From: a virus
Lineage: Duplodnaviria > Heunggongvirae > Uroviricota > Caudoviricetes
DNA length: 64,000 nucleotides
Virus record (IMG/VR): IMGVR_UViG_2648501802_000002
Reading direction: 5' to 3' (one strand)
Shown: piece by piece, positions 24,772 to 30,153 of the stretch
Layout: each line of letters begins with the position of its first letter
Numbering within the stretch: the stretch's first letter is position 1
Translations under genes and position numbers: made by a program
The notes under the pieces: generated by a model
What the model saw: the letters and a program-made list of their open reading frames with translations, nothing else
Told to the model about the DNA's origin: nothing
Database searches by the model: none

Positions 24772-25192
24772 CCTGTGCGAGATTTATTACGTAACTTCTG
24801 CGGATTTGCTGAGTAACAGGGAAAATCCGATACAACGGGTTAATGAACGAGTCGCCATGCGTAACCATGACGTTGAAATGCCACAGTCGCTCTCCTTTAC
24901 CCATATATTCAGTGGGTATGTACAACCATTCACTGTTTTCGCCCTGTTCAGCCGACGTCAGACAACGTTGTTCGCCTTCAATCACTGTCGTCGGCTTCTG
25001 AACATCGCGGATCCAATATCTGACCGTTGCGCCGCGCAAAAACGGGAATTTAGACCGGTATTTGAACGGCACCCGAATGAAACCCGGTTTAATTTCCACA
25101 TCACCAAGTTCTAAATGCGTGATGTCCTTGCGTTTTAGCAAATAGCGATCGGCTAAGGCTAACGCAAGAACGCATACACCCCAGCCAATCAT
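24749..25192 (-). CDS. lydB: LydB-like protein (putative antiholin/lysis regulator)
   Basis: 147-aa ORF with N-terminal hydrophobic segment, directly downstream of holin-like gene. Confidence 0.45.
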   Translation of the reverse strand: MIGWGVCVLALALADRYLLKRKDITHLELGDVEIKPGFIRVPFKYRSKFPFLRGATVRYWIRDVQKPTTVIEGEQRCLTSAEQGENSEWLYIPTEYMGKGERLWHFNVMVTHGDSFINPLYRIFPVTQQIRRSYVINLAQDVSDDEK

Positions 25193-25518
25193 TTCCCACC
25201 TCCCTTTTTCACCAAACTTGTAAGAACATTCAGAATGCTATCGATATTCACTCGTTTCATCCCTGAAATCACCTCATGACCGTTATTGCTGGCTATCGTT
25301 ACCATTAAGTACGTAATTGATAACTCCCAGCCTTCGTGTTGCCCCAATAGGTACGCCACCGCGCCAGCTGTCACTGCAACAAAGATCTCCGTAACCAATC
25401 CCAACAAGTTGCCAGACTGGCGACCATCTCGGACATCCATCAGGAACGTGCCTATCCCACCAATTACTGAAAGCAGGAGCGCAATAGCAACTGGAGCTAA
25501 TTCCTGTGTGTCAAGCAC
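25189..25518 (-). CDS. lydA: LydA-like holin
   Basis: 109-aa ORF with three hydrophobic helices and charged C-terminus KKGGGK. Confidence 0.55.
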   Translation of the reverse strand: MLDTQELAPVAIALLLSVIGGIGTFLMDVRDGRQSGNLLGLVTEIFVAVTAGAVAYLLGQHEGWELSITYLMVTIASNNGHEVISGMKRVNIDSILNVLTSLVKKGGGK

Positions 25519-25590
25519 AAGTTCCCTCCTACGTTGTCAGGAGGTAATGGTATGCAAAGTAACTTCTCAACCGGTCATGTTACTTGACAT

Positions 25591-25616
25591 CCTCCACGTC
25601 CTTTAGAGCGTGGAGG
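25591..25616. other. 8-bp perfect inverted repeat hairpin immediately 5' of the intron-like element
   Basis: CCTCCACG-(10 nt loop)-CGTGGAGG, 4 nt upstream of the GTGCG start at 25621. Confidence 0.4.
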
Positions 25617-25620
25617 ATGT

Positions 25621-26460
25621 GTGCGCCCAGCATGGGCGCGATCTTGGAGGTGAAAGCCCTCCCGCGAGCTGACCACAGCGAGCGAAAGGAAGTGCAACTG
25701 CGTGAGGGCGGCTAGGCGTGGGGAGGAAGCACGGAATGAACCCGTGAGCCGATGAACAAGAATCGGATATGAGGCGCGATGGAGCAAGGCGAGCAGGCAC
25801 ATCACTGCGAAGCTTTCGTGACAAAGTCGCGTAGATCCGACGGTTGTGCGGGGAAGGATCGCGTTCTTACCTGGGGAGTTCTCGCCTCATGCCTGAAAGG
25901 GCAACGTCGTAAGACGGAGCGAGAAGTCAGCAGAGGCCGTAGTAGTCAGGACTCCGACGAAGGGCCGAACGAGAAGGAAAGCCAAAAGATATGACTCTTG
26001 ACAGGACATTGCGTCAGAAGCCGGGGAAGCCCGGTACGGACCCGCATGCCGGGTGGTGTGGCAGGGGCGCAGCCTTGTGCTCCCCCCTATGCCGATCAAG
26101 CAGAACATTGTGCTGGGCCTCTGACGCATCTCCTTGATGGTCTTGGCATCGTGCTTAAGTGGATTGGTGTCGTCTCTGATAGGCTCATGGAGGCAGAATG
26201 AAACTCAAAAATCCGGGACAGCACGCAAAACAGGCTGCACAAAAAGCGCAGGTTGCGTAGGAGTGGAATCCCGCTCCCAAAAAATGGTGCAGAAGTTGCG
26301 GCAGTGGTCATCCGACGCACTGGAAAATAACAAACCCGCCGTGACCAGAATCGGAGGCCTGAGGGAGTGACCGTAAAACCGGATAACCCAGGCAGCAAAT
26401 ACCCGCTGGATGAGGCATGGTTCCGGCAGATAATACCGAAAACCGCCAGACACACTGGAT
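25621..26460 (+). mobile_element. Group II intron 5' fragment (domains I-III-like RNA, no intact maturase ORF); 3' boundary approximate
   Basis: Starts GTGCGCCCAGCATGGGCG (compare Ll.LtrB GTGCGCCCAGATAGGGTG); shares motifs GCGAAAG, AATCGG, GTCGC and CGTAGTAGTC...GAAGGG with LtrB domains I-III; GNRA-rich; only short ORFs on either strand. Confidence 0.5.
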
Positions 26461-26516
26461 AATCAGTAGAAATAACCCATTAAAATCATTATAATAATTG
26501 GGCACATTATTATATT

Positions 26517-27080
26517 ATGCTGAATAATAGAGACATGAATATTAATGAACTTAAAGACTGTATTCACTATGAAGTAATCGGTAGCGAGCGTCCTTTCTCC
26601 TGGCGAAAGGCAATTGTTCGCGCAATAAAACATAGAAGAGTTCGTTATTTATTTTGGTGGCGCATAGCCAAATACCTTTTTGATAAAGGCGGATACTGTC
26701 GGAAGATTGCGGGGAAAATGGAACGTTTCATTCTTGATAAATATAGTGTAACAGTCCCTTTAACTGTAAATATAGGGAAAGGCTTTGATATTTCTTATCT
26801 CAACGGTGTTGTTATCGGTCACAAAGTAACCATTGGTGAAAATTGTTCAATAAAACCAGGGGTAACTATTGGGCTACGTGGTGATTTTAATGATATGGAT
26901 ATTGTTATAGGACATAATGTGACCATTGGTTGTAATGCCACCATTCTTGGTGGCAAAGTGCGTATAGGAAACAATGTCACAATAGGTGCTCATGCATTGG
27001 TATTGCATGATATTCCTGATGATTCAACATTCATCACTAAATTTCAGTCTGAAGTTATCTGCTCGTCCTCTTGCACATAA
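26517..27080 (+). CDS. Hexapeptide-repeat (left-handed beta-helix) acetyltransferase, AT-rich cargo
   Basis: 187-aa ORF with tandem hexapeptide repeats ([23 protein letters not shown]...[34 protein letters not shown]); 3' end overlaps the convergent tfa stop by 37 nt. Confidence 0.7.
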
Positions 27081-27661
27081 CCCTGATTCATCAGCTCTGG
27101 CCATACGATATCCGGAGCTGTACTGGTGTCAATTCGACTCACTAATACTCTGTATTTTCTCCAGGAATCCAGTTGTGAATTTTCCTCGGTTGTTGCTATT
27201 TCAAGATTAACTGCATCCTGCAGAATTGCGATGTTATCTGTTGCCTCCTGAATCAACCTTGCCTTTTTCTCTTCCGCTTCCCGTATCCGAAACAGTTTTT
27301 CTGCTTCCTCATCCTTCACCCAGGATACGCCGTCCCACTTCTGATACTCCCCTGCTGGCGACAACCAGGTGACATTCTCTGGTAACGGTCCGAGTTCAGA
27401 AATAAACAACGCGTCCCCCGATGCCACGTCATAGACCGTTTTACCACGATGGTCTTCAACAATAATCCATGATTCATTTTCACTGTTAAAAACTGCCACA
27501 AAGCCAGCAGGAATTTCCGGTGGGGCGATATCTGTAGAATTAGCTGGTAGCCCTGTATGAGGTGGAATATATGCGTCACCTTCACCAATAAACTCATTAG
27601 TTCCGGCGAGCAGGTTATAAATTTTTACAGTACGTGATTGTTCACTCATTCTGAATGCCAT
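27044..27661 (-). CDS. tfa: Tail fibre assembly protein (lambda Tfa-like) with altered C-terminal tail
   Basis: 205-aa ORF; [60 protein letters not shown]... nearly matches lambda Tfa; last about 16 residues differ. Confidence 0.8.
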
Positions 27662-28552
27662 TATGCAAGCCTCACAATATAATTAAATGCGATGTTTTTA
27701 ACGGTGTTTTCCGAGTTACCAGCAGCGTTAACGGTGATGGTGTGTCCATGTGAACCAATCGCAACAGAGTGCGTATGAGCGCCAATATCAACTGTATGTG
27801 CATGCGCCCCTGCACTTGCAGCGGTGCCTGATACTGAGTGGGTGTGTGCACCAGAAGAAGGCACAGTTCCATTCCCCACCACAGTGCCGCTTGATGAGCC
27901 ATCAAGCCAGTCGAAATTCATACCGCCACCATCTGGTCTCCTTAATGGAACGGTATGAGTATGTGCGCCAGCACTATTTGCAGTACCAGATACATTGTGG
28001 GTATGTGCACCTGTGTTATTCGTTGATTTAGTACCGTAATCAAACGAAGATGTGGTTTTCGTACCCAAATCCGTATTGGATGCGCTGGCGCTGTGGGTGT
28101 GCGATTTAATGCCATCCTGTTCCAGAGACAATACGTCCCGACCACTGGCGGGTTTGCCCTTGATTGTCCAGCCACGCATATCCGGGATCACGCCTGACGG
28201 ATAAGCGGCTGCAAGTTTCGGGTATGCAGATTTGTCAAAAGTCTGTCCCTGCATCAGGGCGTAACCAGACGGCACAGTATCTGATGGCCACGGATGCGGA
28301 ACACCAACAGGAAGGACCTCAATATCCCCGGAACCATCAAACGAAACGTTATTAATTTTACGGGCTGTTTTCAGCTTTGTAGCCGTTGAGGCATTGCCGG
28401 ACAGCTCACCAGAAATGCCACCAACAACTGTTAGATCACCAGTTATTGTGCCGCCTGAACTTTCCAGTTTTTTAGCAACATCACTCTTAATAGAGTCGAT
28501 TTCTTTTTTTCAGATTAGTTATATCTGCTGGTATCGTTGTCACTGTTGCCAT
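27661..28552 (-). CDS. Tail fibre receptor-binding protein (lambda Stf C-terminal domain-like); frame broken at an A7/T7 run
   Basis: ATG at 28552 ([16 protein letters not shown]) then frame switch at T7 run 28504-28510 into ...[40 protein letters not shown]...[11 protein letters not shown], which matches lambda Stf C-terminus. Confidence 0.6.
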
Positions 28553-28725
28553 ATTAATTCCTTACGCCCATTCCCGCAGCGGTTGTTCTAATTGAACTTC
28601 AAAACCATCAAACATTTGTTGTTTCAAACTGTTGTTTAAAATACGAACATTAACGAAGAAGCCATCATTTTTAATCACTGTTGGTTCTTCGTTCTCGCCG
28701 TTTGGTATTTCGGTATATGTAACAC

Positions 28726-30153
28726 CTACAACATCAAGAAGAATGTTGTTTTGCAGCTCTTCATTATCGTGGTGCCGAGTTCTCTTAAACCAAGGTATTG
28801 GATAACAGCAAGGACGCTTGTTTTGGACAGAATATCGCGACCGACTGACGTTAAGTCAGTCTGAGAAACAGTGTCTGTACCGGTAAAGTACGGCAGTTTA
28901 TTTGCGCCTGTAGCAAGACCAGCAAGCGCGGTTAAAGTTGCATCCAGAGGCTGTTTGCCTGCCAGCGCATTTGTCATTGTTGTCGCAAAGTTCGGGTCAT
29001 TACCAAGTGCTGCGGCAAGCTCATTCAGGGTATCAAGAGCTTCTGGTGATGAACCAACCAATGCGGATATGGCAGCTCTTACATAAGCAGTCGTAGCAAT
29101 CTGCGTATTATTTGTGCCCTGCGCAGCCGTAGGCGCAGTAGGGACTCCCGTTAATGCAGGGCTTGCCAAAGGCGCTTTGAGGGCTAGGGCATTGTTGATA
29201 GTTGTGCTGAAATTCGGGTCGTTATTGATCGCAGCAGCTATTTCTTTAAGCGTATCCAGTGTGCCAGGTGCACCGTTGATAAGTGCCGTTATAGCTGACT
29301 TAACAAAGGCTGTATTTGCGATCTGCGTGCTATTTGTACCTTGCGCTGCCGTCGGCGCGGTTGGCGTTCCTGTCAGACTCGGGCTTTCTATTGGCGCTTT
29401 GGTATCAGCAAGACCTTTTACAGACTTAACGGCTTTAGGGGTAGCCGCCATTGTTTCGCTGTCGCTGTTAGTTTCGCTACTGAGCTGAACTAATCCCTTT
29501 TGCGTTGTGCTTGCATCCTGTGCCGTATACTTGCTTTTCGCCAGATCGTAGGCTTTTTTAGCTGCCAGCGAACTTGCAGCAACATCACTTCTGCTACTGG
29601 TTACAGAGTCTGAAATATCAATGCCGATCGTGCGGTTAATACGCTCGGATGTATCAATCATCTCCTGGGTAATGGCTGATACGCCAGCAGGGATATTCAC
29701 CGTACAAACAAGCAGCTCTCCATCTCCTAACTGATATGAATCGGTATAGGTTCTGGCAACAAATTCAGCCGCATGAATATGTGACGCGGTATTAACCTGA
29801 TAGGTATCCTCTCCAAGGAGGTATCTTCCCTTCAGCACAATTGCATATTTCTTGCCTTCACTAAGTGCAAGAGAAATATCCTTACGGTGCCGAATAGTTA
29901 CCTGGTAGAATTCACCAATATCCACTGACGCAGCGCCAGCAGTTTTATCACCATCCACTGAGGTGATTAACAGGTTCATACCACCGCCAGGCTTCGGCAG
30001 GAAACCGGCATAAAACCCAGGATCAACAATTCCCCTGAATTTTCGGTTTAGCGCGGCTGACAGATATGGTTCGTGGTATTGCACATCAGCCACCAGAGCC
30101 AGTGACTCGGGCGATGGGTAAGTAACTGATGTAACAACTGTAACGTCATTCAT
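28726..30153 (-). CDS. Tail fibre protein, constant part (P1 S / lambda Stf middle-region-like)
   Basis: Start at ATG 30153 (MNDVTVV...); contains fibre repeats GTPTAPTAAQGTN.TQIANTAFV and ...TALAGLATGANKLPYF...GRDILSKTSV as in lambda Stf; frame ends 12 codons after the crossover site. Confidence 0.6.
   Translation of the reverse strand: MNDVTVVTSVTYPSPESLALVADVQYHEPYLSAALNRKFRGIVDPGFYAGFLPKPGGGMNLLITSVDGDKTAGAASVDIGEFYQVTIRHRKDISLALSEGKKYAIVLKGRYLLGEDTYQVNTASHIHAAEFVARTYTDSYQLGDGELLVCTVNIPAGVSAITQEMIDTSERINRTIGIDISDSVTSSRSDVAASSLAAKKAYDLAKSKYTAQDASTTQKGLVQLSSETNSDSETMAATPKAVKSVKGLADTKAPIESPSLTGTPTAPTAAQGTNSTQIANTAFVKSAITALINGAPGTLDTLKEIAAAINNDPNFSTTINNALALKAPLASPALTGVPTAPTAAQGTNNTQIATTAYVRAAISALVGSSPEALDTLNELAAALGNDPNFATTMTNALAGKQPLDATLTALAGLATGANKLPYFTGTDTVSQTDLTSVGRDILSKTSVLAVIQYLGLRELGTTIMKSCKTTFFLML
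28773..28798. other. Din-family DNA invertase crossover site (gix/cix/hix-like 26-bp dyad) inside tail fibre gene
   Basis: TTCTCTTAAACCAAGGTATTGGATAA: 12-bp inverted half-sites around a central AA; lies where the fibre constant region ends. Confidence 0.5.
28885..29420. repeat. Tandem repeats of about 180 bp within tail fibre gene; coordinates approximate
   Basis: Protein-level repeat (...PTAPTAAQGTN.TQIA.TA.V..AI.AL...P..LDTL.E.AAA..NDPNF.TT..NALA.K.P) occurs twice, with matching DNA repeats. Confidence 0.4.

Follow-up and report, generated by a model that had tools for sequence, protein, structure and literature searches.

A 476-nt group II intron, very probably a fossil, inserted in a palindromic unit of a P1-like phage-plasmid

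RmInt1 and RmInt2, two group II introns of Sinorhizobium meliloti, encode a reverse transcriptase (RT)/maturase devoid of endonuclease domain and home into insertion sequences (ISs) through the pairing of their exon-binding sites (EBS) with intron-binding sites (IBS) in the target; inverted repeats provide RmInt2 with one site per strand, and inactive fragmented copies of these introns, such as FRE652, persist in genomes (PMC4615759, PMC5894124, PMC4181065). Inactivated copies (E.c.I3, E.c.I4, and E.c.I9) are also found on plasmids and other mobile elements of Enterobacteriales, where free homing sites are abundant and full-length introns rare, a situation described as 'extinction dynamics' (Leclercq and Cordaux 2012, PMC3522654). 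Here we describe a group II intron that recalls both cases and that is very probably the fossil of a mobile bacterial intron. It occupies positions 25621-26096 on the plus strand of the virus record IMGVR_UViG_2648501802_000002, a P1-like phage-plasmid of which we analysed a stretch of 64,000 nucleotides (hereafter the window).

Like RmInt1 and RmInt2, the lineage of this intron combines an RT/maturase without endonuclease domain with EBS-IBS homing into an IS, and its target in the window is a palindrome with one site per strand. It differs from them in its smaller ribozyme (~461 nt without the open reading frame, ORF, in the full-length parent) and in its target, an IS200/IS605-type hairpin instead of an IS630 or ISRm17 sequence. 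The extinction dynamics of the Enterobacteriales introns are mirrored by the contrast between the homing IS, IS609, present in 4903 of 5426 complete E. coli genomes, and the cognate RT gene, carried by only three to five of them (most of the gene is present in only three). The Enterobacteriales introns, however, target Rhs-associated ISs, IS679, and IS3-family transposase genes, with no IS200/IS605 end among their sites, and the window copy is an internal-deletion derivative with both ends rather than an end-truncated fragment. Our literature search found no published link between a group II intron and IS609. Class E/F (IIE/IIF) introns share with this lineage a compact ribozyme (450-700 nt without the intron-encoded protein, IEP), an IEP without endonuclease domain, and an EBS1 located in domain Id (PMC3753933), but in the domain V found here the loop is GACC and the upper helix is limited to 3 bp, and the Rfam domain V model fails to detect it. 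Class C (IIC) introns insert next to DNA stem-loops, as do three relatives of our intron that lie right after terminator-like hairpins and T runs; by contrast, the window and IS609 introns are located within the 3' arm of a hairpin or 3 nt before the end of the element, not downstream of a terminator. Finally, IStrons, made of a group I intron and an IS605/IS607 element (bioRxiv 10.1101/2023.11.20.567912), offer a parallel to the full-length E. coli copies, which occupy the right end of a TnpB-encoding IS605-family element, near the guide RNA end, with the difference that the invader is here a group II intron and not an integral part of the transposon, and that the window contains neither tnpA nor tnpB.

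A scan of the whole window with Rfam at gathering thresholds returned exactly two matches, both inside the intron and both full-length to the model: group-II-D1D4-3 (RF02001) at 25702-25866 (95.5 bits, E=4e-18, gathering score 32) and group-II-D1D4-1 (RF01998) at 25884-25965 (46.8 bits, gathering score 35). The element starts with GTGCG (GUGCG in RNA, 25621-25625), which corresponds to the group II 5' terminal GUGYG and is identical to the start of six relatives, and it ends with GAU. These matches and ends establish beyond reasonable doubt that 25621-26096 is a group II intron, as proposed in an earlier sequence-only reading of the region 25591-26460, which had recommended precisely such a covariance-model search. 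Its remarks on a purine-rich stretch that starts with GTGCG after an inverted repeat also hold true, for 25600-26100 (purine 0.60, GC 0.59-0.61), as does its observation of only short ORFs, since no long one exists on either strand of 25591-26460.

Twenty-nine complete E. coli genomes contain the same sequence, in most cases on plasmids of 90-105 kb, and none of them has it annotated. We joined the two flanks of the intron into an artificial empty-site query and searched it against the plasmid database PLSDB. The lydA side was shared by 472 plasmids and both flanks by 37; the flanks were 476-483 nt apart in 35 of the latter and contiguous in the other two (NZ_CP033848.1 and CP054337.1), which are complete P1-like replicons. 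The empty site (loci L006 and L014) reads ...GGAGGATGT|CAAGCAG..., that is, ...CGTGGAGGATGT|CAAGCAGAACATTG..., and the window differs from it by exactly the 476 nt of 25621-26096, from GUGCG to GAU. This comparison defines the boundaries precisely. It shortens the intron from the ~850 nt estimated previously and places its start not 4 nt after a hairpin but directly after it, in fact inside its 3' arm. What had been taken for a 5' fragment is a copy with an internal deletion, in which both splice-site ends, domains I-III, a domain IV stub, a damaged domain V, and domain VI remain. The features of the locus are as follows (L007 is the locus of the full-length parent).

25583..25620: 5' exon and DNA target of the intron, in a palindromic unit of 40-42 nt (CTTGACATCCTCCACG-N10-CGTGGAGGATGT...) of which it holds the left arm, the 10-nt loop, and all but the end of the right arm
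25616-25620: IBS1, GATGT, at the end of the 5' exon
25621..26096, plus strand: ORF-less, internally deleted group II intron of 476 nt (empty site, Rfam, collinearity with L007 2601-4432)
25702..25866, plus strand: domain I core (Rfam group-II-D1D4-3), with 6 parental nt missing between 25821 and 25822
25799..25803, plus strand: EBS1, ACAUC, complementary to IBS1 GAUGU (covariation)
25884..25965, plus strand: domain II-III region (Rfam group-II-D1D4-1)
25991..26035, plus strand: remnant of the RT/maturase ORF, first 15 codons (MTLDRTLRQKPGKPG), 14 of 15 identical to the parent
26029..26034, plus strand: GCCCGG, remaining copy of a 6-nt direct repeat at the deletion (comparison with the parent)
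26029..26057, plus strand: damaged domain V, without the 5' ACC of the parent and with G>A at 26036
26060..26096, plus strand: domain VI (GGCAGGGG...CCCU-A-UGCC) followed by GAU; candidate branch-point A at 26089, G>C at 26082
26097..26100: CAAG, the 4 nt that complete the right arm of the unit and open the 3' exon, set apart from the rest of the unit by the intron
26101..26458, plus strand: decayed internal fragment of a tail tape-measure gene, interrupted by frameshifts and stop codons (~73% nt identity; tblastn)

The parent exists at full length in a few E. coli chromosomes. In strain MFDS1022581 (L007), an intron of 1832 nt (L007 2601-4432) has ends identical to those of the window copy. 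It encodes an IEP of 456 aa (TIGR04416, 419.8 bits) in which Pfam detects only the RVT_1 and GIIM domains and which therefore has no endonuclease domain. The motif LX3AX3PXLF[V/A]HW typical of the C-terminus of class D IEPs (PMC4615759) is absent from this protein, and the parent is therefore not a class D intron; its size and endonuclease-less IEP are consistent with class E/F. We also considered whether the S. meliloti relatives of our intron could be RmInt1 (class D), and ruled it out on account of the absence of the motif and of the different host IS (the copy L003 is inserted in an IS21-type istA gene).

Apart from the 1350 nt that it lacks between two GCCCGG repeats (L007 3015 and 4365), the window copy follows the parent collinearly. 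This deletion took the IEP ORF beyond its first 15 codons, domain IV, and the three 5'-most nt of domain V. The same junction, as well as the G>A change in domain V, is common to all the P1-plasmid copies examined, which indicates that both arose once; the window copy has in addition lost 6 nt in domain I (25821/25822). No other IEP is encoded in the 64-kb window. Thus, although precisely inserted, the element has only 15 codons left of the RT/maturase ORF that an autonomous mobile retroelement needs. Its earlier description as truncated and immobile was right in that it is non-autonomous and very probably immobile, with the IEP ORF and the base of domain V gone, and wrong in that the deletion is internal rather than a truncation of one end. 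Other E. coli plasmids carry independently damaged copies as well: one with a different internal deletion (L002), one that is 5'-truncated, frameshifted, and cut by IS66 (L004), and a short 5' piece (L020). Among the chicken isolates of one study, Z1323CEC0001, Z1323CEC0005, and Z1323CEC0006 carry the relic on P1-like plasmids, and Z1323CEC0003 has a near-full-length chromosomal copy with a split ltrA.

Domain V, reported as missing in the sequence-only reading, is present together with domain VI and a proper 3' end at 26029-26096. The Rfam domain V model, Intron_gpII (RF00029), did not match anywhere in the window, even at E<=10; it likewise misses the domain V of the intact relative L003 (4760-4791; E<=10, 500-nt search), so that its silence is uninformative for this lineage. 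The standard model is blind to these introns, and surveys based on domain V would miss both the lineage and its ORF-less derivatives. A custom covariance model, built from the 3' ends of two full-length introns and searched against all fetched loci, yielded one match per intron. The seven intact copies scored 83-103 bits, the window (26024-26096) 70 bits, and L002 47 bits. In this model, 97.7% of the alignment cells pair in the stated structure, compared with 41-55% when the partners are slid by 1-3 columns, and the apical stem of domain VI shows compensatory pairs (CAGCC/GGCUG, GAGCC/GGCUC, CGGCC/GGCCG, and GGUCAGC/GCUGACC).

The 32-nt domain V (ACCGCCCGGUGCGGACCCGCAUGCCGGGUGGU) is identical in the seven intact introns, which come from alpha-, beta-, and gamma-proteobacteria (E. 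coli, S. meliloti, Ralstonia, Marinobacter, Burkholderia, and Halomonas). According to RNAfold, that of L007 consists of a lower helix of 10 bp, separated by a 2-nt bulge from an upper helix of 3 bp capped by a GACC loop; the seventh pair below the bulge is a G-U, which gives the triad CGC. The P1-plasmid copies alone show changes in this domain: the basal ACC is gone, and with it the first C of the triad, and G>A at 26036 breaks the 3-bp upper helix. The domain V hairpin is formed by RNAfold for L007 and L003; it is absent from the minimum-energy fold of the window, whose copy consequently does not show the two helices, 2-nt bulge, and triad of an intact domain V. Domain VI retains its basal helix, an unpaired A (A26089) located 7 nt from the 3' end, and the terminal GAU, as expected for a bulged A 7-8 nt from an AY end; G>C at 26082 weakens its apical stem. 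Given the lack of a catalytic domain V fold and of a maturase in cis, the RNA of the window intron, if transcribed at all, is predicted to be able neither to splice nor to move.

An ORF-less but functional intron, spliced and perhaps mobilised by an RT/maturase supplied in trans by the host genome, seems improbable. Both splice-site ends, EBS1, domains I-III, and the branch A of domain VI are intact, bacterial ORF-less introns usually co-reside with related IEPs (PMC4424553), and the IEPs of related introns can cross-complement (PMC4615759). However, the lesions hit domain V, whose 32 nt do not vary among seven intact relatives, the minimum-energy fold is devoid of this domain, domain I carries the additional 6-nt deletion, and most of the cognate RT gene is present in only 3 of the 5426 complete E. 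coli genomes. Moreover, 35 out of 35 copies are at one site with the same junction, with no sign of spread. An intact core accompanied by a related IEP, the usual hallmark of functional ORF-less introns, is not what we found: domain V is damaged and the window encodes no IEP.

Co-option of the element for a new function, as an insulator of the late lyd/dar promoter, a block on recombination or transposition at the palindrome, or a regulatory RNA, is still harder to credit. Toro and colleagues have speculated that intron remnants may persist as cis-regulatory elements (PMC5894124), and the element is kept in 35 of the 37 plasmids with the module described below and splits a palindrome of the type on which IS200/IS605 transposases act. 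Nevertheless, the intron copies, 97.4-99.5% identical to the window, have diverged about as much as the flanks, indels have built up within the intron, scans of it for promoters and terminators gave nothing above shuffled background, and the two plasmids without it are complete P1-like replicons. We did not predict any sigma-70-like promoter upstream of the intron on the plus strand either. Least credible of all, and in fact refuted, is a downstream-truncated 5' fragment of ~850 nt without domain V and with a maturase start at MKLKNPGQ: the lack of Intron_gpII matches at E<=10 and of long ORFs could be invoked in its favour, but RF00029 misses intact L003 too, 26029-26096 aligns with domains V and VI and the 3' end of full-length introns and matches their covariance model, the empty-site alignment ends the insertion at 26096, and the MKLKNPGQ peptide is part of a tape-measure relic shared with plasmids that have no intron.

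The fossil of a once mobile intron is thus the reading that we retain, and its history would have comprised several steps. In one P1-like lineage, a module made of the palindromic unit, the tape-measure relic, an acetyltransferase gene, and a different fibre end would have replaced the lydC-cin-C segment. A full-length intron would later have retrohomed into the palindromic unit, guided at least by EBS1-IBS1 pairing (ACAUC/GAUGU). A slippage-type deletion of 1350 nt between the GCCCGG repeats, at the DNA level, would then have removed the ORF and crippled domain V; we place it after the insertion because an RNA without the base of domain V could hardly catalyse reverse splicing. Further decay (G>A in the upper helix of domain V, G>C in domain VI, and the 6-nt loss in domain I of the window) would have followed, and the relic would have spread with the plasmid lineage by passive inheritance. 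Several points weigh against this scenario. The order of insertion and deletion is one that we infer. Other introns tolerate some losses of base pairs in domain V, and partial accommodation of an A-C mismatch is possible. The relic is kept in 35 of the 37 plasmids with the module, a retention that hitch-hiking explains but that is also compatible with a selected role. Lastly, recognition of the target is only partly reconstructed, as our scan for an EBS2 gave many short G-U-containing candidates, none of them backed by position or covariation.

The full-length intron of L007 provides the key to the homing site. It is located 40 nt after the stop codon of an IS200/IS605-family tnpB, with ...GGGATCCACGTCCTTCAGGGCGTGGAGGATGT as 5' flank and CAA immediately after the intron, in a host IS that corresponds to the insQ element (IS609 of K-12). 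Uninterrupted IS609 right ends from K-12, O157, and another strain all finish with ...GGAGGATGTCAA (...GGATGTCAA), after which the flanks diverge; comparison of these intact ends with the L007 flanks shows that the full-length intron homes 3 nt inside the IS609 right end (L007 2560-2600 and 4433; L008). This right end, downstream of tnpB, is presumably where the scaffold of the TnpB guide RNA meets the guide. The full-length intron would separate scaffold from guide unless spliced out, a parallel to the group I IStrons.

The window copy occupies the same target sequence, CGTGGAGGATGT^CAA, but inside a solo palindromic unit. As it stands, the hairpin has a stem of 12 bp (ACATCCTCCACG at 25587-25598 and CGTGGAGGATGT at 25609-25620), which becomes a 16-bp perfect palindrome in the reconstituted empty site (CTTGACATCCTCCACG-N10-CGTGGAGGATGTCAAG); the inverted repeat reported just before the intron is thus real, but longer than the 8 bp given for it. 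The 40-nt perfect palindrome is TTGACATCCTCCACG-N10-CGTGGAGGATGTCAA. The window hairpin is an extended-stem variant, identical to the right-end hairpin of IS609 at 29 of 31 nt. Neither tnpA nor tnpB, which should accompany a true IS200/IS605 right end, was found in the window. In a scan of one genome per species, the extended variant appeared four times in one metagenome-assembled genome of Oxalobacter (L021-L024); each of these solo units, 40 nt long, stood between unrelated sequences. At least 80% of the palindromic unit is covered in 241 E. coli records, from 238 genomes. On these grounds we regard the target as a short palindrome akin to the hairpin at the right end of IS609; it may be a miniature element mobilised by an IS200/IS605-type transposase. 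We discarded the possibility that the hairpin is the leftover of an IS609 right end, as the flanks of the solo units are unrelated on both sides.

The recognition sequence CGTGGAGGATGT exists on both strands of the palindrome, and only the plus-strand site is occupied; the second, free intron site lies on the minus strand at 25587-25598. We also examined a minus-strand ORF that runs across the empty site (...NVLLDILHALKDVEDV...) as a possible gene hit in antisense. It has no Pfam match, and we rejected it because its codons are those of the palindromic unit and the adjoining coding signal is that of the plus-strand tape-measure relic.

EBS1 (ACAUC, 25799-25803) can pair with the last five nt of the exon (GAUGU, 25616-25620). 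At the same alignment position, the corresponding EBS1/exon pairs are CAUGA/UCAUG in S. meliloti, AAGAA/UUUUU in Halomonas, AGGAA/UUUCU in Burkholderia, CCAAG/UUUGG in Ralstonia, and AAGA/UCUU in Marinobacter. This is good evidence, drawn from aligned sequences, that the EBS1-IBS1 pairing covaries across six relatives. The 3' exon begins with C in the four copies read out of four. The Halomonas, Burkholderia, and Ralstonia plasmid relatives (L016 ~2171-2202, L017, and L018) directly follow GC-rich stem-loops and T runs and have a U-rich IBS1. Insertion next to hairpins may be a trait of the lineage, although the S. meliloti copy (in the IS21 istA gene) and the Marinobacter copy have no obvious hairpin. 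A bolder and rather doubtful possibility is that the lineage specialises in DNA hairpins (IS200/IS605 right ends, their solo palindromic derivatives, and, in other hosts, terminators), maybe by using an extruded or single-stranded hairpin on the lagging-strand template, as these transposons do. In this view, with the full-length copies placed between scaffold and guide, splicing would be needed to rebuild the TnpB guide RNA, in a group II counterpart of the IStron conflict, and the lineage and its ORF-less derivatives, whose domain V the standard model misses, would be under-counted in domain-V-based surveys.

The relic itself is ordinary; the homing site of its lineage and the atypical domain V are of specialist interest. 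For the biology of the phage-plasmid it matters little, being unannotated junk in a recombination-prone junction. Once identified, it can no longer be mistaken for a gene, a live retroelement, or a regulatory RNA, and it conveniently marks the lineage of one sub-group among P1-like (IncY) plasmids. More generally, the analysis defines a group II intron that is rarely intact in E. coli and homes to the near-ubiquitous IS609 right end or to a related 40-nt palindrome, exemplifies cleanly how bacterial introns 'invade, decay, go extinct', and suggests a testable connection of group II introns with the guide-RNA loci of TnpB.

The surroundings of the intron also depart from P1. Megablast gave no match for the region in the phage collection, and it was through the flank that P1 could be compared. 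To the left of the insertion, lydA (25189-25518, minus strand), lydB, hdf, darA, ddrA, and ddrB are 97-99% identical to those of P1. The identity ends at ~25578 and restarts at 28770, the counterpart in P1 of cixR and of the constant portion of the S fibre gene. The intervening 5.2 kb of P1 comprise lydC, cin, and the invertible C segment of 4.2 kb; the window (25579-28769) contains instead a different, foreign module of 3.2 kb. The palindromic unit lies exactly at the junction of the P1 backbone with this foreign DNA, at the left edge of the module; the right junction coincides with the position of the cixR site of P1. No cin homologue was found anywhere in the 64-kb window, and this lineage appears to have a fixed, non-invertible fibre end. 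The intron had been noted as occupying the position expected for the fibre invertase: the location is correct, but it is the whole module, and not the intron, that replaces the invertase.

The segment 26101-26458, located between the palindromic unit and the acetyltransferase gene, is ~73% identical at the nt level to coding sequences annotated as prophage tail tape-measure genes, and tblastn aligns it with a tape-measure protein (E=4e-18) across two frames with stops. It is an internal pseudogene fragment of a gene of this type, and the plasmids without the intron have it as well. The stretch MKLKNPGQHAKQAAQKAQVA singled out by the sequence-only reading aligns with ...ETQKLQESAAKQSTQKAPVAW... 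of the tape-measure protein, so that the supposed maturase start MKLKNPGQ belongs to this relic, outside the intron, whose real IEP remnant is MTLDRTLRQKPGKPG at 25991-26035. The right-hand 360 nt of the region do not belong to the intron.

Downstream of the relic, a putative sigma-70-like promoter (26467-26495, TAGAAA-17-TATAAT) precedes a gene of low GC content (~37%) for a hexapeptide-repeat acetyltransferase (26517-27080, plus strand), annotated as serine acetyltransferase in relatives. Sited where P1 has cin, it could be a lysogenic-conversion or receptor-modifying gene. Its end overlaps a convergent tail-fibre assembly gene (27044-27661, minus strand), inside which a sub-threshold Rfam match to IS009, full-length to the model, was found at 27120-27318 on the minus strand (79 bits, gathering score 117).

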